This document shows positions 3,121 through 16,688 of a DNA stretch of 16,688 nt, in pieces (the stretch's first letter is position 1; every line of letters starts with the position of its first letter). Source of the stretch: a virus (Duplodnaviria > Heunggongvirae > Uroviricota > Caudoviricetes); the IMG/VR virus record IMGVR_UViG_2529293040_000016; one strand, 5' to 3'. The translations under genes were made by a program, and so were the position numbers. The notes beneath the pieces were generated by a model that did not search any database, was not told the origin of the DNA, and saw nothing but the letters and a program-made list of their open reading frames with translations.

Positions 3121-3173
3121 CGGCGGCAGAGCAGTCACGGAGTAAAACTGATACCGCCAAACGTCACCAGAAA
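3121..3173 (-). ncRNA. dicF: DicF small regulatory RNA (ftsZ-targeting sRNA of Qin-type prophages)
   Basis: Reverse complement of 3121-3173 reads TTTCTGGTGACGTTTGGCGGTATCAGTTTTACTCCGTGACTGCTCTGCCGCCG, essentially identical to the DicF sequence as I remember it, followed by a U-run on the minus strand. Correct position upstream of dicB. Confidence 0.8.
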
Positions 3174-5092: not shown

Positions 5093-5374
5093 ATGGAAGA
5101 ATTAAGAATATTTCTCAATTCTCTTTCGTCAGATGAACAGCGTATGTTTGCATGCGAGTGTGGTACCAGCATCGGTTATCTAAGAAAGGCATTGAGTAAA
5201 GGTCAAGTGTTAGGGGCATCGTTATGTGTCCTTATTGAGCGAGCCAGTAATGGTGAAGTTACACGTCAGCAACTAAGGCCTTTTGATTGGATGAATATTT
5301 GGCCCGAGCTGGAAGATACCAAAACGTTAACACAACCACTTTCTAGGAGCTTGATTCATGAAAATCAAGCATGA
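5093..5374 (+). CDS. Cro-like HTH regulator (YdaS/DicC-type)
   Basis: Track ORF, 93 aa, strong SD AAGGAG upstream. HTH-like segment ...CECGTSIGYLRKALSKGQ.... Divergent from the repressor, which is the classical cro position. Confidence 0.75.
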   Translation: MEELRIFLNSLSSDEQRMFACECGTSIGYLRKALSKGQVLGASLCVLIERASNGEVTRQQLRPFDWMNIWPELEDTKTLTQPLSRSLIHENQA

Positions 5375-5783
5375 ACACATCCGCATGGCGATGAATGTCT
5401 GGGCGCATCCGGACGGCGAAAAAGTGCCGGCTGCGAAAATTACCAAAGCGTATTTCGAGCTGGGAATGACGTTCCCGGAACTGTATGACGACAGCCATCC
5501 GGAAGCCCTGGCCCGTAATACCCAGAAAATTTTCCGTTGGCTGGATAAAGACACCCCTGATGCTGTTGAAAAAATGCAGGCTCTGTTACCGGCGATCGAA
5601 AAGGCGATGCCGCCTTTGCTGGTGGCCCGTATGCGCAGCCACAGTTCTGAATATTACCGTGAGATCGTCGAACGGAGGGATCGGCTGGTGAAGGATGTCG
5701 ATGATTTTGTTGCGTCAGCGGTTGTTTTGTATGACCAGATGAATCGCGGCGGCCCGGCAGGGAATGCTGTGGTGATGCACTAA
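5358..5783 (+). CDS. YdaT-like / CII-like early regulator (141 aa)
   Basis: Track ORF with TAGGAG SD 8 nt upstream. Sequence resembles Rac YdaT as I recall it; position is that of cII. Family assignment is from memory, not computed. Confidence 0.7.
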   Translation: MKIKHEHIRMAMNVWAHPDGEKVPAAKITKAYFELGMTFPELYDDSHPEALARNTQKIFRWLDKDTPDAVEKMQALLPAIEKAMPPLLVARMRSHSSEYYREIVERRDRLVKDVDDFVASAVVLYDQMNRGGPAGNAVVMH

Positions 5784-5805: not shown

Positions 5806-6768
5806 ATGAGCAGCAAGCTTCATGGTCTTGTCTGGGAAGGGTGCGCCTTCACCGGCATGATCTTATCCAGGGTGGCGGTTATGGCCCGTCTTGCAGACTA
5901 CAGCAATGACGAGGGCGTGTCATGGCCTGCCATTGAAACTATCCGGCGTCAGATCGGTGCAAGAAGTGAATCCACAGTGAAATCGGCTATTGCAGAACTG
6001 GCGAAAGAGGGCTGGCTGACGAAGGAAGAGCGTAAGGTCGGTGGGCGTAATGTAAGCAATATCTATCGGCTTAATGTGGAAAAACTCGAAGCAGCTGCGG
6101 CGGCGGCGCGTGAGTCATATAAACCGAAAAGAAAAATTAGCCCGGCAAAAAATGACCCGTTAACAGTTGACCCGTCAAATATTGACCCCTCAACGGTTGA
6201 CCCGTCAAATTTTGATGGATCAACTGTTGATAAAAAACTGCCGATTAGGGGGGCGATGATTGACCCCGATCCGTCAGTATTAAAACCTGATCCGTCAGAT
6301 AAAAGATCTTCTTGTCCGGACGCTTCGCAACCGGACCCGCAGACGGCTGAACAGGATTTTTTAACCCGACACCCTGACGCGGTTGTGTTCAGTGCGAAAA
6401 AACGCCAGTGGGGAAGTCAGGAAGATTTGGTGTGCGCACAGTGGATCTGGGGACGAATCGTGAGTCTTTACGAGCAGGCGGCCAGCTATGATGGCGAGAT
6501 CGCTAGACCGAAAGAACCCAACTGGACAGCATGGGCCAATGACGTTCGCACAATGCGGATGCTGGATGGCAGAACTCACAGACAAATTTGTGAAATGTTT
6601 GGGCGTCTCCAGCGGGATTCGTTCTGGGTAAAAAACATCATGAGTCCGGCAAAACTCCGGGAAAAATGGGATGAACTGGTTATCCGCCTGGGGCGTTCGC
6701 CTGCGCAGCGTTGCGTGAATCACATTTCTGAACCGGACACTGAAATTCCGCCGGGCTTCAGGGGGTAA
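5806..6768 (+). CDS. Replication initiator (O-like) with N-terminal winged-HTH domain and in-gene iterons
   Basis: Track ORF 5791..6768; the ATG at 5806 follows a G-rich SD. The N-terminus (...LSRVAVMARLADYSNDEGVSWPAIETIRRQIGARSESTVKSAIAELAKEGWL) is typical of phage replication-initiator HTH domains. The central DP(S/L)(T/N)(V/I) peptide repeats are encoded by tandem DNA iterons. Confidence 0.75.
   Translation: MSSKLHGLVWEGCAFTGMILSRVAVMARLADYSNDEGVSWPAIETIRRQIGARSESTVKSAIAELAKEGWLTKEERKVGGRNVSNIYRLNVEKLEAAAAAARESYKPKRKISPAKNDPLTVDPSNIDPSTVDPSNFDGSTVDKKLPIRGAMIDPDPSVLKPDPSDKRSSCPDASQPDPQTAEQDFLTRHPDAVVFSAKKRQWGSQEDLVCAQWIWGRIVSLYEQAASYDGEIARPKEPNWTAWANDVRTMRMLDGRTHRQICEMFGRLQRDSFWVKNIMSPAKLREKWDELVIRLGRSPAQRCVNHISEPDTEIPPGFRG
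6153..6242 (+). repeat. Iteron array: about six tandem 15-bp repeats (TGACCCGTCAAATNT-like), probable replication origin inside the initiator gene
   Basis: Direct repeats with 15-bp period starting at 6153, 6168, 6183, 6198, 6213 and 6228, the last two degenerate and followed by an A-rich stretch. Further related copies lie at about 6260 and 6288. Same architecture as ori-lambda within gene O. Confidence 0.65.
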
Positions 6769-6808: not shown

Positions 6809-7231
6809 GTGGCAAAAGTTTTTACACAAGAAGAGCGGGAAAAAATTAAAGGGCAGGTTGTTGAACTCGTACGCCAGAGTGGGCGCGAGACGTTACGACA
6901 ACTGGAAACTAAAACTGGGGCAACAAGATATCTGATGAGCGTTCTGGCCAGAGAGCTGGTTGCCAGTGGCGATGTATACAACTCTGGTTACGGGTTATTC
7001 CCGTCTGAACAGGCGCGTAAGGACTGGCAAAATGCCCGTAAAAAGCTCTCAAGGGCAAAGCTGAAGAAACCATCTGCGGTTGATCCGGACCTTATCTGGT
7101 CATTACCTGACGGAGAAATACGTCGCTACGACAGGCGTCAGAACATAATCTGTCGCGAGTGCCGGAAGAGCGAAGCTATGCAGCGCGTACTGGCGTTTTA
7201 TCAGGGGAATTTTGAGGAGGTGGTGCGGTGA
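6809..7231 (+). CDS. Hypothetical protein (140 aa)
   Basis: Track ORF with GTG start and AGGAGG SD at 6794-6799. No Walker A motif, so not a DnaC/P-type helicase loader. Function unknown. Confidence 0.65.
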   Translation: MAKVFTQEEREKIKGQVVELVRQSGRETLRQLETKTGATRYLMSVLARELVASGDVYNSGYGLFPSEQARKDWQNARKKLSRAKLKKPSAVDPDLIWSLPDGEIRRYDRRQNIICRECRKSEAMQRVLAFYQGNFEEVVR

Positions 7232-7786: not shown

Positions 7787-7918
7787 AGGCTATAAACCGA
7801 CTAACAACTAAATACTGAAGATTTAAATCAGAAACGATTTTTATTAAATCCTTAACCGGAGGGATTCCTGCACCCTCAAATCATCAGGAGGCCGCCCGAA
7901 AGGGCGGTGGAGATAATA

Positions 7919-8413
7919 ATGGGAATAACTAAAGAACGATTGTTGGAAATAGCAAACCTTAGTGATTGGGCATTAAGTGATGAGAGAATTGTTTCTCCTC
8001 ATGCTTATGAGTCAGTTACAAGTATAGAAATAACAACAATGGCTAGAATGCTGCTTGGTTATTTCAAAATAGAAAATAAAAAACAGATGGATAGTAATGT
8101 TGATATATGTGAGATTTTAGACGATTGGGGGGCTTGGGTTGTGGCTGGTAATAGTTCTATTGATTGGCAGGAAATAGCTGATAAATATAAAAATGTTGTT
8201 CCTCATGGTAAAAAATCACGTCGTCAGTGCAGCAATGATGAAGGGCGAATTATTGACATTAGTATCCTTAGGTTAGAAAGATATAAGCAACAAGAATATG
8301 AGTTAATTGTTGCTCATTTCGTGATTGGTTTATCTCTTCGTGCTATTGCAAAGCAACAAGGATGTTCAGATGGAACAATTCGTAAAAGATTGCAAAAAGC
8401 CTTAGGTTTTTGA
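7919..8413 (+). CDS. HTH regulator with sigma-70 region-4 / LuxR-like C-terminal helix-turn-helix (164 aa), encoded in the low-GC island
   Basis: Track ORF 7907..8413; the ATG at 7919 has GGAG 6 nt upstream. C-terminus ...EYELIVAHFVIGLSLRAIAKQQGCSDGTIRKRLQKALGF resembles sigma region 4 / LuxR HTH. Markedly AT-rich. Convergent with the three-gene cassette. Confidence 0.65.
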   Translation: MGITKERLLEIANLSDWALSDERIVSPHAYESVTSIEITTMARMLLGYFKIENKKQMDSNVDICEILDDWGAWVVAGNSSIDWQEIADKYKNVVPHGKKSRRQCSNDEGRIIDISILRLERYKQQEYELIVAHFVIGLSLRAIAKQQGCSDGTIRKRLQKALGF

Positions 8414-10755: not shown

Positions 10756-10874
10756 GACTGCGGGTGCTTGAGGCTATCTGTCTCAGGCATGAACACCAAA
10801 AGGCAGATAGAGAAAAGCCCCAGTTAACATTACGCGTCCGGCAAGACGCTTAACATTAATCTGAGGCCATATCT

Positions 10875-11087
10875 ATGCTCTACACACGTAGGTTAGCCTC
10901 TTACGTGCCGAAAGGCAAGGAGAAGCAGGCTATGAAGCAGCAAAAGGCGATGTTAATCGCCCTGATCGTCATCTGTTTAACCGTCATAATGACGGCACTG
11001 GTAACGAGGAAAGACCTCTGCGAGGTACGAATCCGAACCGGCCAGACGGAGGTCGCTGTCTTCACAGCTTACGAACCTGAGGAGTAA
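10875..11087 (+). CDS. mok: Mok-like regulatory ORF (in-frame N-terminal extension of hok)
   Basis: 70-aa track ORF containing the hok ORF in the same frame, as in chromosomal mokC/hokC loci (recalled). Confidence 0.55.
   Translation: MLYTRRLASYVPKGKEKQAMKQQKAMLIALIVICLTVIMTALVTRKDLCEVRIRTGQTEVAVFTAYEPEE
10932..11087 (+). CDS. hok: Hok/Gef-family type I toxin (51 aa)
   Basis: MKQQKAMLIALIVICLTVIMTALVTRKDLCEVRIRTGQTEVAVFTAYEPEE is a clear Hok-family sequence (TM helix plus conserved ...TRKDLCEV...RTGQTEVAVF...). AAGGAG SD 9 nt upstream of the ATG. Confidence 0.85.
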   Translation: MKQQKAMLIALIVICLTVIMTALVTRKDLCEVRIRTGQTEVAVFTAYEPEE

Positions 11088-12595: not shown

Positions 12596-12955
12596 ATGCT
12601 CATAGATTTGGTTTTACCTTACCCGCCGACGGTGAACACTTACTGGCGACGCCGTGGCAGCACATATTTTGTATCAAAAGTCGGTGAGCGTTATCGCCGT
12701 GATGTGGCGCTTATTGTTCGCCAGCAGCAACTGAAATTAAACCTGTCCGGAAGGCCGGCAATAGAAATTATTGCAGAGCCACCGGATAAGCGCCGTCGTG
12801 ACCTGGACAATATCCTGAAGGCACCACTGGATGTACTGACGCATGCGGGGCTGCTCATAGACGACGAGCAGTTTGATGAAATTAATATTGTGCGCGGTCA
12901 GCTTGTTCCTGGTGGGCGGTTGGGGATAAAAATCACAGAACTGGAGTATGCATGA
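12596..12955 (+). CDS. rusA: Holliday-junction resolvase RusA
   Basis: 119 aa. Conserved RusA signatures read by eye (N-terminal LPYPPTVNTYW, catalytic region PDKRRRDLDN, C-terminal GGRLGIKITE) align with E. coli RusA from memory. AGAGGTG SD. Stop overlaps the Q start as ATGA. Confidence 0.85.
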   Translation: MLIDLVLPYPPTVNTYWRRRGSTYFVSKVGERYRRDVALIVRQQQLKLNLSGRPAIEIIAEPPDKRRRDLDNILKAPLDVLTHAGLLIDDEQFDEINIVRGQLVPGGRLGIKITELEYA

Positions 12956-13641
12956 ATAACCAGTATTTACAGTTTGTTCGTGAGCAACTCATGATTGCCA
13001 CCGCCGATTTGAGTGGATCAACAAAAGGGCAGCTTGAGGCCTGGCAGGAGAATGCCATGTTTGATACAGGGCGTTACAGGCGTAAAAAAATCCGGTACCG
13101 CGATGAAGTGACTGGAAAAATGATAACGCGGGATAATCCACCAATCCCGGGAAAGCAATCGCTGGCGAAGGGGGCGTCAATTCCTCTCGTCAGTCCGGTT
13201 GAGTTTTTGACATCATCGTGGCGGCGGGCTGTTCTGTCTCTTGAAGAACATCATAAAGCCTGGTTGTTGTGGTGTTACAGCGGGAGTATTTGTTGGGAAT
13301 ATCAGATCGCGATAACACAGTGGGCGTGGAATGAATTTAATACTCAATCCGGTACCAGAAAAATTGCTGGGAAAACGCAGGAACGCCTGAAAAAATTAAT
13401 CTGGCTGGCGGCGCAGGCAGTAAAAGCAGAACTTTTTGGTGGGGAAGGTTATGAATATCAGGAGCTGGCATTACTGGCGGGAGTGACAACTAAAAACTGG
13501 TCCAAAACATTTACTCGTCACTGGGTTGCAATGAAACACATTTTTCACCGACTGGATAGTGAGGCTTTATTATTTGTAATGAGAACACGTTCAAAACAAA
13601 AGGCGGCATTTTCAAAGCAAAGTGTTGCAAAAGTAGATTGA
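12952..13641 (+). CDS. Late-gene antiterminator Q-like protein (229 aa)
   Basis: Track ORF immediately followed by a pR'-like promoter and strong intrinsic terminator, and preceded by rusA, which is the canonical nin-Q-pR'-tR' arrangement. Assignment is mainly by context. Confidence 0.65.
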   Translation: MNNQYLQFVREQLMIATADLSGSTKGQLEAWQENAMFDTGRYRRKKIRYRDEVTGKMITRDNPPIPGKQSLAKGASIPLVSPVEFLTSSWRRAVLSLEEHHKAWLLWCYSGSICWEYQIAITQWAWNEFNTQSGTRKIAGKTQERLKKLIWLAAQAVKAELFGGEGYEYQELALLAGVTTKNWSKTFTRHWVAMKHIFHRLDSEALLFVMRTRSKQKAAFSKQSVAKVD

Positions 13642-13731: not shown

Positions 13732-13857
13732 GTGCCACTTATCTCGGATAGACATGGTGAATGCGCTGGTGGAGGAGATAAGGGTGATTTTTGTATGCTT
13801 GCAAGTAACCGGCTCATTTAAACCGTCTGGTCTGTTTCCTCCGGCTCTACAAAAATA

Positions 13858-14533
13858 ATGTCCATCATTTTTAATGGACACTATCGTATGAAACACCGGA
13901 CCTGGATCACTGAAGCTTTACGTCTTCACTTTGAAGAACATTTACCCCGGGTTGTGGCCGGGCGTCGCCTGGGTGTACCAAAATCAACAGTTTGTAGTAT
14001 GTTCGTGCGCTTTCGGAGAGCTGGCCTTTCGTGGCCTTTGCCCGCAGGCATGTCGGAGCAGGAACTTGATGCCTGCCTTTACGGACAATTTTCCACGGTA
14101 CCAGTCGTACGTCCTGAAAGCACCGTTATATCCGAAGCCCCCGTGGTAAAAACGTCCCCGGCGGCCCAACTTCCCTTATGAGTTTAAAATCGCCTTAGTG
14201 GAGCAGTCACTGCAGCCCGGAGCCTGTGTGGCGCAGATCGCCCGGGAAAACGGAATCAACGATAACCTGCTCTTCAACTGGCGCCATCAATACCGGAAAG
14301 GTGGCCTGCTGCCTTCCGGAAAAAATATGCCGGCACTGCTTCCCGTGACGTTAACGCCGGAGCCGGATAATAAAATCCCGGCCCCCGCACAGGAACCAGA
14401 GCAGATAAATACACCGTCCGACAGTCTGTGTTGTGAGCTGGTTCTGCCGGCCGGAACTCTCAGGCTTAAAGGTAAACTGACGCCGGCGTTATTACAGACA
14501 CTTATCCGCGAAATAAAAGGGAGCAGCCACTGA
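13858..14533 (+). CDS. tnpA: IS66-family tnpA, split between two frames (13858..14181 and 14150..14533)
   Basis: The downstream frame carries the conserved TnpA core (RRPNFPYEFK...PGACVAQIARENGINDNLLFNWRHQY) but has a TAA immediately upstream of it. The upstream 107-aa ORF (HTH-like) ends 30 nt later in the +1-offset frame. The overlap contains AAAAA and CCCC runs. Confidence 0.5.
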
Positions 14534-14880
14534 TGATATCTCTCCCTGCAGGTTCGCGTATCTGGCTGGTTGCAGGTATCACCGATATGCGAAATGGCTT
14601 TAACGGCCTGGCATCAAAAGTTCAGAACGTCCTGAAGGATGACCCGTTCTCCGGACACCTGTTCATCTTCCGCGGACGCCGGGGTGACCAGATAAAAGTG
14701 TTGTGGGCTGACAGTGACGGACTGTGCCTCTTCACCAAACGCCTGGAGCGGGGCCGCTTCGTCTGGCCAGTCACCCGTGACGGCAAGGTGCACCTTACTC
14801 CGGCTCAGTTATCCATGCTTCTTGAAGGTATCAACTGGAAGCACCCGAAACGAACGGAACGCGCTGGAATCCGCATATAA
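14533..14880 (+). CDS. tnpB: IS66-family TnpB (Orf2, 115 aa)
   Basis: Sequence MISLPAGSRIWLVAGITDMRNGFNGLASKVQNVL...FRGRRGDQIKVLWADSDGLCLFTKRLERGRFVWP is the characteristic IS66 Orf2 signature. Start overlaps the tnpA stop as TGATG. Confidence 0.85.
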   Translation: MISLPAGSRIWLVAGITDMRNGFNGLASKVQNVLKDDPFSGHLFIFRGRRGDQIKVLWADSDGLCLFTKRLERGRFVWPVTRDGKVHLTPAQLSMLLEGINWKHPKRTERAGIRI

Positions 14881-14899
14881 CCCGTTGTAAAGTGAGGAT

Positions 14900-16471
14900 A
14901 TGGACACCTCACTTGCTCATGAGAACGCCCGCCTGCGGGCACTGTTGCAGACGCAACAGGACACCATCCGCCAGATGGCTGAATACAACCGCCTGCTCTC
15001 ACAGCGGGTGGCGGCTTATGCTTCCGAAATCAACCGGCTGAAGGCGCTGGTTGCGAAACTGCAACGTATGCAGTTCGGTAAAAGCTCAGAAAAACTTCGT
15101 GCAAAAACCGAACGGCAGATACAGGAAGCACAGGAGCGAATCAGCGCACTTCAGGAAGAAATGGCGGAAACGCTGGGTGAGCAATATGACCCGGTACTGC
15201 CATCCGCCCTGCGCCAGTCTTCAGCCCGTAAACCGTTACCGGCCTCACTTCCCCGTGAAACCCGGGTTATCCGGCCGGAAGAGGAATGCTGTCCTGCCTG
15301 TGGTGGTGAACTCAGTTCTCTGGGATGTGATGTGTCAGAGCAACTGGAGCTTATCAGCAGCGCCTTTAAGGTTATCGAAACACAACGTCCGAAACAGGCC
15401 TGTTGCCGGTGCGACCATATCGTGCAGGCACCAGTACCTTCAAAACCCATTGCACGCAGTTATGCCGGAGCGGGGCTTCTGGCCCATGTTGTCACCGGGA
15501 AATATGCAGACCATCTGCCGTTATACCGCCAGTCAGAAATATACCGTCGTCAGGGCGTGGAGCTGAGCCGTGCCACACTGGGGCGCTGGACAGGTGCTGT
15601 TGCTGAACTGCTGGAGCCGCTGTATGACGTCCTGCGCCAGTATGTGCTGATGCCCGGTAAAGTCCATGCTGATGATATCCCCGTCCCGGTCCAGGAGCCG
15701 GGCAGCGGTAAAACCCGGACAGCCCGGCTGTGGGTCTACGTCCGTGATGACCGTAACGCCGGTTCACAGATGCCCCCGGCGGTCTGGTTCGCGTACAGTC
15801 CGGACCGGAAAGGTATCCATCCACAAAATCACCTGGCCGGTTACAGCGGTGTGCTTCAGGCCGATGCTTACGGTGGTTACCGGGCGTTATACGAATCCGG
15901 CAGAATAACGGAAGCCGCGTGTATGGCTCATGCCCGGAGAAAAATCCACGATGTGCATGCAAGAGCGCCCACCTACATCACCACGGAAGCCCTGCAGCGT
16001 ATCGGTGAACTGTATGCCATCGAGGCAGAGGTCCGGTGCTGTTCAGCAGAACAGCGTCTGGCGGCAAGAAAAGCCAGAGCCGCGCCACTGATGCAGTCAC
16101 TGTATGACTGGATACAGCAACAGATGAAAACACTGTCGCGTCACTCAGATACGGCAAAAGCGTTCGCATACCTGCTGAAACAGTGGGATGCACTGAACGT
16201 GTACTGCAGTAATGGCTGGGTGGAAATCGACAACAACATCGCAGAGAACGCCTTACGGGGAGTGGCCGTAGGCCGGAAAAACTGGATGTTCGCGGGTTCC
16301 GACAGCGGTGGTGAACATGCGGCGGTGTTGTACTCGCTGATCGGCACATGCCGTCTGAACAATGTGGAGCCAGAAAAGTGGCTGCGTTACGTCATTGAAC
16401 ATATCCAGGACTGGCCGGCAAACCGGGTACGCGATCTGTTGCCCTGGAAAGTTGATCTGAGCTCTCAGTAA
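14900..16471 (+). CDS. tnpC: IS66-family transposase TnpC (523 aa)
   Basis: N-terminal leucine-zipper-like coiled coil, Cys4 zinc finger (CPACGG...CCRCDH), and a long catalytic region typical of IS66 transposases. GTGAGG SD upstream. Confidence 0.85.
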
Positions 16472-16610
16472 ATATCAATACGGTTCTGACGAGTCGCTTA
16501 CGATAAATGCACCGGCATCATCATAAAAAGTGAGCCAGCCAAATGGAAGGTATCGTTAAACTCACCGGTAGTGTCAGTGGGTCGTCTGAGATGCCTGCAT
16601 GAGTTATCAG

Positions 16611-16642
16611 AGCCATCAGTACTTAACTGGTGGCTTTTTTTA
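16611..16642 (+). terminator. Rho-independent terminator in the flank right of the IS
   Basis: Stem AGCCATCAG (16611-16619) / CTGGTGGCT (16627-16635) with one central mismatch, loop TACTTAA, then TTTTTTT. An RBS and ATG (16677) of an unrelated ORF begin just before the window ends. Confidence 0.5.
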
Positions 16643-16688
16643 TTGTTGTCAGCTTCCGGATAACGGGAGACGGGGTATGGACCAGATG

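Follow-up and report, generated by a model that had tools for sequence, protein, structure and literature searches.

Introduction

In phage lambda the origin of replication lies inside the gene of the initiator that acts on it. The O protein consists of a DNA-binding N-terminal domain, a linker and a C-terminal domain, and the O gene carries dyad-symmetric repeats, 18-bp iterons spaced 20–24 bp, annotated at nucleotides 348–432 of the gene. Lambda also has a 40-bp AT-rich block and a P gene. Here, we describe a locus of related design in IMG/VR virus record IMGVR_UViG_2529293040_000016, a stretch of 16,688 nucleotides that was analyzed as a whole and is called the window below. The open reading frame (ORF) at 5806–6768 encodes a replication initiator of 320 amino acids and contains an array of 15-bp repeats. 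We consider it likely, from comparisons with related genes, that these repeats are the iterons of a lambda-type origin inside the O-family initiator gene of a lambdoid/Rac-like prophage.

The likeness to lambda extends to several levels. The initiator has a DNA-binding N-terminal domain, a linker and a C-terminal domain homologous to that of lambda O (39% identity). The dyad-symmetric repeats occupy nucleotides 346–435 of the gene, and the gene follows cro-like and cII-like genes in an early rightward operon, with a ren-like gene downstream. There are also clear differences. The N-terminal domain belongs to the HTH_36 type and is not detectably that of lambda O by sequence, the repeats are abutting 15-bp units with a 12-bp palindrome, there is neither a 40-bp AT-rich block nor a P gene, and the protein ends in a tail resembling that of DnaT, whereas lambda O ends in TDWIYGVDL.

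Iteron plasmids offer a second comparison. Initiators such as RepA of pSC101, pi of R6K and RepA of P1 are winged-helix proteins that bind tandem direct repeats, and these plasmids use the host DnaB-DnaC complex and have no loader of their own. The P1 origin, oriR, needs clustered GATC sites. The present locus differs from these plasmids in lacking the Rep_3 or two-winged-helix architecture (Pfam finds no Rep_3 match in the initiator), in having its repeats within coding sequence, in a period of 15 bp instead of the helically phased one of about 22 bp, and in having no conserved DnaA box, whereas plasmid iterons lie beside such boxes.

The closest described modules are those of the O-only phages, among them LLS, SfII, SfIV and HannyBb, whose replication modules have an O homolog but encode neither a helicase nor a helicase loader (PMC12315714). 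They made up 34 of the 314 lambdoid phages surveyed. Their replication was stated as not understood, neither repeats nor tail were described, and no tests with dnaB, dnaC, dnaT or priA were reported (PMC12315714). The module studied here is O-only in this sense. The N-terminal domains of the LLS and SfII proteins are of the HTH_36 type, 64–66% identical to that of the present initiator, and are accompanied by 15-bp repeats of a second class (class B, below); LLS differs in its C-terminal domain. HannyBb shares the order of initiator and DUF977 gene and differs in its N-terminal domain and in its repeats of 23 bp.

Results

An O-family initiator with a different DNA-binding domain

The gene and the parts of its product are:

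5806–6768, plus strand: replication initiator gene, 320 amino acids (HTH_36 N-terminal domain, disordered linker, lambda-O-type C-terminal domain, DnaT-like tail)
5806–6120, plus strand: N-terminal winged-helix domain, residues 1–105, the presumed repeat-binding part
6349–6705, plus strand: lambda-O-type C-terminal domain, residues 182–300, from BLASTP and the AlphaFold2 model
6706–6765, plus strand: DnaT-like tail, residues 301–320, QRCVNHISEPDTEIPPGFRG, predicted disordered

The whole length of the protein aligns with PHROG 391 (E 2e-115), a family annotated as "replication initiation O-like". BLASTP aligns only its C-terminal domain with lambda O (119 residues, E 5e-26), and the N-terminal domain gives no match to that of lambda O (Pfam Phage_rep_O). 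Pfam instead assigns the N-terminus to HTH_36 (E 2e-6), and there is a weak match to DnaD_N. An AlphaFold2 model built on 86 homologs shows residues 1–105 as a winged helix (pLDDT 76–88; helix-helix-helix-helix-strand-strand), residues 109–178 as disordered (pLDDT about 30), residues 205–295 as a helical domain (pLDDT 72–90) and the tail, residues 298–320, again as disordered. The first disordered stretch is the one encoded by the repeats and by the conserved block described below. When the whole model was compared with the PDB by Foldseek, the only matches were generic winged helix-turn-helix regulators of the MarR/ArsR/PadR kind for the N-terminal domain, some of them solved on DNA. Judged by these comparisons, the protein belongs to the O-family initiators, with a DNA-binding domain and repeats of other kinds in the places where lambda has its own.

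A phased array of 15-bp repeats inside the gene

The repeats and the sites around them are listed here.

6152–6226: iteron array made up of five units of 15 bp (TTGAC-N2-GTCAA followed by a 3-bp spacer)
6152: unit 1, ATGACCCGTTAACAG
6167: unit 2, TTGACCCGTCAAATA, a perfect 5+5 palindrome
6182: unit 3, TTGACCCCTCAACGG
6197: unit 4, TTGACCCGTCAAATT, a perfect 5+5 palindrome
6212: unit 5, TTGATGGATCAACTG
6227–6241: degenerate sixth (half) unit, TTGATAAAAAACTGC, with a short A-run, partly in the low-stability segment 6207–6236
6260–6277: distal iteron-like site containing GATC, TTGACCCCGATCCGTCAG
6287–6298: distal iteron-like site containing GATC, CTGATCCGTCAG
6260–6336: conserved block, with both distal sites and a third GATC at 6305, conserved up to the GAC codon at 6334
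6111–6151: left flank of the array, A-rich and of low stability, TGAGTCATATAAACCGAAAAGAAAAATTAGCCCGGCAAAAA, candidate unwinding segment

The consensus TTGACNNGTCAA occurs with zero to two mismatches at 6152, 6167, 6182, 6197 and 6212, spaced by exactly 15 bp. In Tandem Repeats Finder the array gives a 15-bp period at 6141–6215 (5.0 copies, 71% matches) and also a 30-bp period at 6141–6230 (3.0 copies, 80% matches, or 84% over 6141–6215). The spacers alternate between those containing G or C (CAG, CGG, CTG) and those made of A and T only (ATA, ATT), which gives the 30-bp super-period. No further copy with zero or one mismatch is present in the 16.7-kb window, and single matches with up to two mismatches are not enriched across it (8 observed, 9.6 expected). 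By comparison, five matches within 75 bp were found in 0 of 300 first-order Markov random windows, the random maximum being three. Only the phased cluster of repeats is significant, not the enrichment of single sites.

The array lies in the frame of the initiator ORF and reads NDPLT VDPSN IDPST VDPSN FDGST VD. A preliminary description of this DNA had reported 15-bp tandem repeats within the initiator ORF, their quasi-palindromic form (TTGAC..GTCAA), their translation into DP(S/L)(T/N)(V/I) pentapeptides and two more distant copies, all of which our analysis bears out. Its term "pentapeptide-repeat linker" is right in that the array encodes the linker, and misleading if taken to mean the Pfam Pentapeptide family: the initiator has no match to that right-handed beta-helix, its units are DPSxV or SKSDx and not of the A(D/N)LXX type, and the segment is predicted to be disordered. 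The A-rich segment said to follow the array does exist, though it amounts to only GATAAAAAAC, about 10 nt.

Conservation of the repeats as DNA

Repeats within a gene could be selected as protein only, for instance as a flexible DPSxV linker or as an acidic mimic of single-stranded DNA (ssDNA) like the PriB-docking linker of DnaT. The linker is indeed predicted disordered, and it is acidic and rich in serine and proline in all relatives. In DnaT, binding to PriB is a property of the acidic linker (PMC13377028), and disordered linkers commonly show repeat expansion and contraction. The question was addressed with 80 loci from species-representative genomes, together with phage and metagenome loci. 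To measure synonymous conservation, 77 non-identical relatives were aligned by codon, and the sequences that have the commonest amino acid were scored for the share that uses the commonest codon. This share was 0.55 in the N-terminal domain and 0.60 at the start of the C-terminal domain, compared with 0.84 in the iterons, 0.97 in codons 147–152 and 0.91 at the GATC pair. Every region was scored in the same set of sequences, so that common descent cannot account for the difference between regions.

The pattern of variation agrees with this. Different residues occur at the edges of the units (V/I/F, N/T), yet the palindrome bases within their codons (xTT, Axx) are constant, and amino-acid differences fall exactly at the DNA spacers. 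Serine codons in the repeats are TCA in 47% and TCT in 32% of cases (79% together), as against 25% and 16% (41%) elsewhere in the same genes (Fisher 5e-27), and aspartate is encoded by GAC in 68% as against 42% (Fisher 3e-17). The choice of codon is specific to the position in the unit, with TCA at 99–100% and TCT at 94–98% of the respective sites. Among close E. coli relatives (87–92% identical), exact 15-bp deletions leave 5, 4, 3 or 2 units between conserved flanks; across all relatives the number of in-phase linker units ranges from 2 to 9 with a mode of 5 (78 loci). Furthermore, dyad symmetry is a property of DNA without a rationale at the protein level, and HannyBb and lambda have repeats at the same place that do not encode pentapeptides (23 and 18–24 bp). 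Selection on the protein only is thus very improbable. The comparisons support a constraint that acts on the DNA and not on the peptide alone, and we propose that the pentapeptide repeats arise mainly as a side effect of the repeated DNA and are tolerated by virtue of the linker's disorder.

Repeat families and N-terminal domains

The repeats also change with the domain that would bind them. Class A N-terminal domains, which include the sequence MSSKLHGLVWEGCA, go with units of the form T-T-G-A-S-S-S-N-Y-C-A-A-M-N-R (36 units), whereas class B domains (MS[TV]KL..YVWDxCA...) go with C-T-G-A-C-N-C-N-T-C-A-A-A-A-T (349 units); positions 1 and 13–15 distinguish the two. In HannyBb, where an unrelated N-terminal domain precedes the same lambda-O-type C-terminal domain, the corresponding place in the gene is taken by five dyad repeats of 23 bp, CATCGGGTCAAAATGGCCTGATG, and in lambda by its 18-bp iterons. 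The four DNA-binding domains are thus accompanied by four repeat families at one position, as would be expected if each N-terminal domain binds the repeats adjacent to it. As a separate observation, the HannyBb repeats (L002:3346–3461), inside the O-like gene, are a likely unannotated origin of that phage.

Distal sites and the conserved block

The most conserved DNA of the initiator gene across genera is the block at 6260–6336. In the 77 relatives, which come from many genera, its codons GAT CCG TCA GTA ... GAT ... TCA are 97–100% identical, one proline codon being conserved at 82%, and this conservation spans both N-terminal domain classes and several C-terminal domain types. Aspartate in the block is always encoded by GAT, whereas the iterons use GAC in 81% of cases in the same alignment. 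The tripeptide DPS is GAC-CCG-TCA in the iterons and GAT-CCG-TCA, which creates GATC, at both distal sites in 100% of relatives. All three GATC sites are kept in all class A genera. It is reasonable to think, with moderate confidence, that the block is part of the origin, possibly a helicase-entry portion or one sensitive to Dam and SeqA.

A different explanation is that the repeats bind the initiator or another regulator for autoregulation, copy control or pausing, the origin being elsewhere, and that the block is, separately, conserved as a boundary of mosaic recombination. Plasmid iterons also serve autoregulation and handcuffing, and conserved "linker" sequences at module boundaries are known in lambdoid mosaicism. 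The block does lie at a mosaic junction between modules, exactly where at least three C-terminal domain types join the N-terminal domain and its repeats. On the other hand, no comparable repeat cluster or strongly AT-rich intergenic origin candidate is found near the replication genes, the equivalent repeats of lambda, with the same C-terminal domain and the same gene offset, are its origin, and the fixed GAT of the block opposite GAC in the iterons argues for selection on a particular DNA motif, not for mere low divergence. We regard this explanation as improbable and an origin within the gene as the better reading of the repeats.

A candidate for unwinding is the left flank of the array. It contains the least stable 30-mer of the gene (6111–6140; dG -33.2 against a window mean of -40.3, standard deviation 3.8; 96.9th percentile), and its AT skew over 6111–6151 is +0.67.

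A DnaT-like tail and the neighbouring loader genes

The last 20 residues of the initiator align with residues 160–179 of E. coli DnaT, the C-terminal end in both proteins (...IPPGFRG-COOH), with 14 of 20 positions identical and 18 of 20 similar. The NCBIfam DnaT model matches its positions 159–179 alone (16.8 bits, cut-off 201), and homology beyond the tail was rejected for the N-terminal oligomerization domain of DnaT and its three-helix ssDNA-binding domain, residues 84–153 (hhalign probability 0.2%). The label "primosomal protein I" on phage homologs is due to this tail. The same tail ends YdaU and the proteins of HannyBb, LLS and SfII (IPxGFRG in these three phages), as well as other scaffolds, and it is common to at least seven initiator domain combinations, several of them unrelated.

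The kind of tail goes together with the kind of loader. In species-representative genomes, none of 42 loci with a GFRG-type tail has a downstream loader, a P-like gene follows in 7/7 loci with a lambda-O-like W..(E/D)..L tail (E 1e-32 to 1e-43), and one of 25 loci with another tail has a DnaC-like gene (P-like partner against tail type, Fisher p = 0.002, uncorrected for phylogeny). Viral contigs were then scanned for DNA encoding D-x-x-I-P-x-G-F-R-G-stop. Among the 80 tail loci found, in at least seven scaffold combinations, a P-like gene is next in 0 and a DnaC paralog is next in 38 (34/68 where the flank is sufficient). In P0002, an initiator 90% identical to ours and with the same tail is followed by a DnaC paralog 80% identical to YdaV of Rac and 47% to host DnaC. 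A rule that the tail always means absence of a loader gene is contradicted by L089, L121 and YdaU. The revised association suggested by these loci is that the tail never occurs with a P-type loader and goes with a DnaC-type loader or none. Because the tail accompanies the DnaC route, whether through host DnaC or through a paralog from the phage, and is not associated with the P route, it may help to recruit DnaB-DnaC.

YdaU of the K-12 Rac prophage, which carries oriJ, deserves separate mention. It is a DUF1376 protein unrelated to our initiator and homology between the two modules was rejected on this ground, yet its C-terminus (L086:3418–3474) is the initiator's DnaT-like tail. The ydaU-ydaV-ydaW neighbourhood resembles that of the window in style, with the difference that Rac has the DnaC paralog YdaV and the window does not. 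Rac ydaU lies directly 5' of the DnaC-like ydaV and thereby mirrors the host gene order, in which dnaT (L085) lies directly 5' of dnaC. In addition, four viral proteins (L096, L124, L142 and L156) carry the whole DnaT ssDNA-binding domain (residues 85–153, E 1e-16 to 1e-27) and the tail, fused to DUF1376 or other N-terminal domains. It may therefore be that dnaT, in the same way as dnaC, came from the replication module of a phage.

The gene downstream and the missing loader

Within 3 kb downstream of the initiator, the window contains no homolog of lambda P, DnaC or DnaB, in agreement with the preliminary description, which had seen no DnaC/P-type loader. The next gene is:

6809–7231, plus strand: DUF977/LygF/"Ren-like" gene, 140 amino acids (Pfam DUF977, E 2.6e-30; PHROG 142)

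As noted before, its product lacks a Walker A motif. It has a 20-residue C-terminal motif in common with lambda Ren (12/20 identical). A remote relationship to helicase loaders had been suggested as something to look for, and searches of PDB, PADLOC and NCBIfam returned no match. DUF977 was rejected as a hidden loader on these grounds, only the Ren-like motif having been found, and because it is absent from the O-only phages SfII and LLS.

Prophage setting

The window is a lambdoid/Rac-like E. coli prophage. In E. coli O127:H6 E2348/69, a locus 99.9% identical to segment 5700–7300 forms part of an element integrated beside ompW, and the initiator counterpart there is WP_000095665.1. At least 80% of this 1.6-kb query is covered in 412 complete E. 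coli genomes. More widely, the cluster to which the initiator belongs counts over 3,000 sequences on its own, relatives are found in over 30 genera, and the type is widespread in Enterobacterales prophages. The initiator ORF is preceded by a divergent repressor gene and then by two early genes:

5093–5374, plus strand: YdaS/Cro-like gene, early operon, upstream of the initiator
5358–5783, plus strand: YdaT/CII-like gene, early operon, upstream of the initiator

Rightward transcription through these genes (5093–5783) would enter the origin, as in lambda. The neighbourhood as a whole is of the Rac style, with racR/ydaS/ydaT-like regulators, DUF977 (ydaW-like), dicB/DicF and hok/sok. The DicF antisense small RNA is found at 3121–3172 on the minus strand, adjoining a dicB-like gene (Rfam RF00039, 72.5 bits), and the sok antitoxin RNA of a hok/sok (hokD) type I toxin-antitoxin locus at 10762–10937 on the plus strand (Rfam RF01794, 117 bits). 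Two genes of the antiterminator Q family are present, one at 7907–8413 (Pfam) and one at about 12952–13641 (from the annotation of the near-identical E2348/69 locus), which suggests a composite or tandem prophage remnant. ARAGORN finds no tRNA in the window, although the stretch of E2348/69 to which its right part (about 13800–16688) would correspond contains tRNA-Ile and tRNA-Arg; the two sequences therefore diverge there. A 21-bp tandem repeat (865–940, 3.7 copies, 70% matches) lies within a long minus-strand ORF at 7–1347.

Discussion

The suggestion that this locus follows an origin-within-O architecture is supported in silico by the homology of the C-terminal domain to lambda O, the same offset of the repeats, the disordered linker that they encode, their synonymous conservation, the gain or loss of whole 15-bp units, and the pairing of repeat family and N-terminal domain. 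In the sequence of events that we propose, the N-terminal winged-helix domain would bind the TTGAC/GTCAA half-sites at 6152–6226 and the two related sites at 6260–6298, and a multimeric initiator complex would form on about 150 bp; we hold both steps with high confidence. With moderate confidence, this complex would destabilize an adjacent low-stability segment (6111–6151, 6207–6241 or 6278–6313). The last step is more doubtful. The lambda-O-type C-terminal domain and the tail may bring in host DnaB-DnaC, probably by contacting DnaC and in the manner presumed for DnaT in replication restart, which we consider possible at somewhat less than even confidence.

We propose more tentatively still that the tail, R-x-V-N-x-V-S-x-P-D-x-x-I-P-P-G-F-R-G, would be a portable motif for docking to the host loader, most likely to DnaC in DnaB-DnaC. 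It may replace a loader of their own in O-only phages and act as the handover element in DnaT, and host dnaT-dnaC may be a domesticated phage pair, because viral proteins carry the DnaT C-terminal domain and tail on phage initiator N-terminal domains. DnaT and the initiator share their last 20 residues, and both act, or are presumed to act, before delivery of DnaB-DnaC. They differ in that DnaT is brought to forks by PriA and PriB and not by sequence-specific binding to double-stranded DNA. The earlier statement that the loading mechanism is unclear still applies in so far as there is no loader gene. It is less of a blank, given the tail and a DnaC cassette in a 99.5%-identical module.

A number of observations weigh against these proposals. 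Concerning the origin, a spacing of 15 bp is about 1.4 helical turns, as compared with 20–24 bp in lambda. The least stable 30-mers (6111–6140, 6207–6236 and 6278–6307) reach only the 94th–97th percentile of the window, and no lambda-style 40-bp AT-rich block is found near the array. Two DnaA boxes flank the array, one of consensus type at 6075–6083 (TGTGGAAAA) and a weaker one at 6225–6233; the 6075–6083 box was not counted as part of the origin, since its conservation ends with close E. coli relatives and does not extend to the remaining class A genera. The covariation of repeats and N-terminal domains comes from only about four independent pairings. In the literature searched, nothing relevant was found on the repeat sequence; the same was true of the PGFRG motif and of YdaU/oriJ. 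Concerning the tail, no contact between DnaT and DnaC is documented (PMC5778457), and in the 2026 preprimosome structures the tail is unresolved and the DnaT N-terminal domain is favoured as recruiter of DnaB/DnaC (PMC13377028). DopC of the DopC/DopE pair is described as having, like our initiator, an HTH_36 N-terminal domain and the DnaT C-terminal motif; unlike it, DopC is a domesticated chromosomal protein, its partner DopE is P-like, and its locus was reported to lack iteron-like repeats (Brezellec et al. 2017, PMC5509034). There is also a third class of loader-less HTH_36 proteins, of 335–375 residues, in Providencia, Proteus, Yersinia and Rahnella (L014–L020, L045, L049, L074 and related loci). 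They have no DnaC-, P- or DnaB-like gene downstream and end in ...W.xIW(K/Q)..., not in the DnaT-like tail.

A last such point comes from the viral contig L121, which is 99.5% identical to the window from 5700 to the initiator stop codon, then carries a DnaC-paralog cassette of about 1.5 kb, after which DUF977 resumes at 90% identity. The module in the window could accordingly be a defective remnant, with real iterons, in which the cognate DnaC-paralog gene has been deleted and the origin no longer fires alone, the loss being decay. Such an account would also fit the DnaC paralog downstream of 10/11 viral loci that have an initiator with HTH_36 and lambda-O C-terminal domains and enough flank, and the pseudogene with an internal stop annotated after DUF977 in E2348/69. 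However, the loader-less arrangement recurs, both in L122 (99.3% identical over 1.8 kb, with the same cassette-less junction) and in the 412 complete E. coli genomes mentioned above. The initiator and DUF977 ORFs are both intact, and isolated phages have either the initiator followed by DUF977 (HannyBb) or O-only modules (LLS, SfII), a type counted in 34 of 314 lambdoid phages (PMC12315714). A defective remnant is, in our view, unlikely.

In the present locus, the known lambda design of an origin is thus probably realized with another DNA-binding domain and with compact repeats of 15 bp, a combination not described in the literature searched. Iterons alone would be unsurprising to a specialist. 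Their recognition is of use in the annotation of origins, since thousands of enterobacterial prophages are concerned. The DnaT-like tail links two open questions, namely how helicase is loaded in O-only phages (PMC12315714) and how DnaT brings in DnaB-DnaC during replication restart (PMC5778457; PMC13377028).

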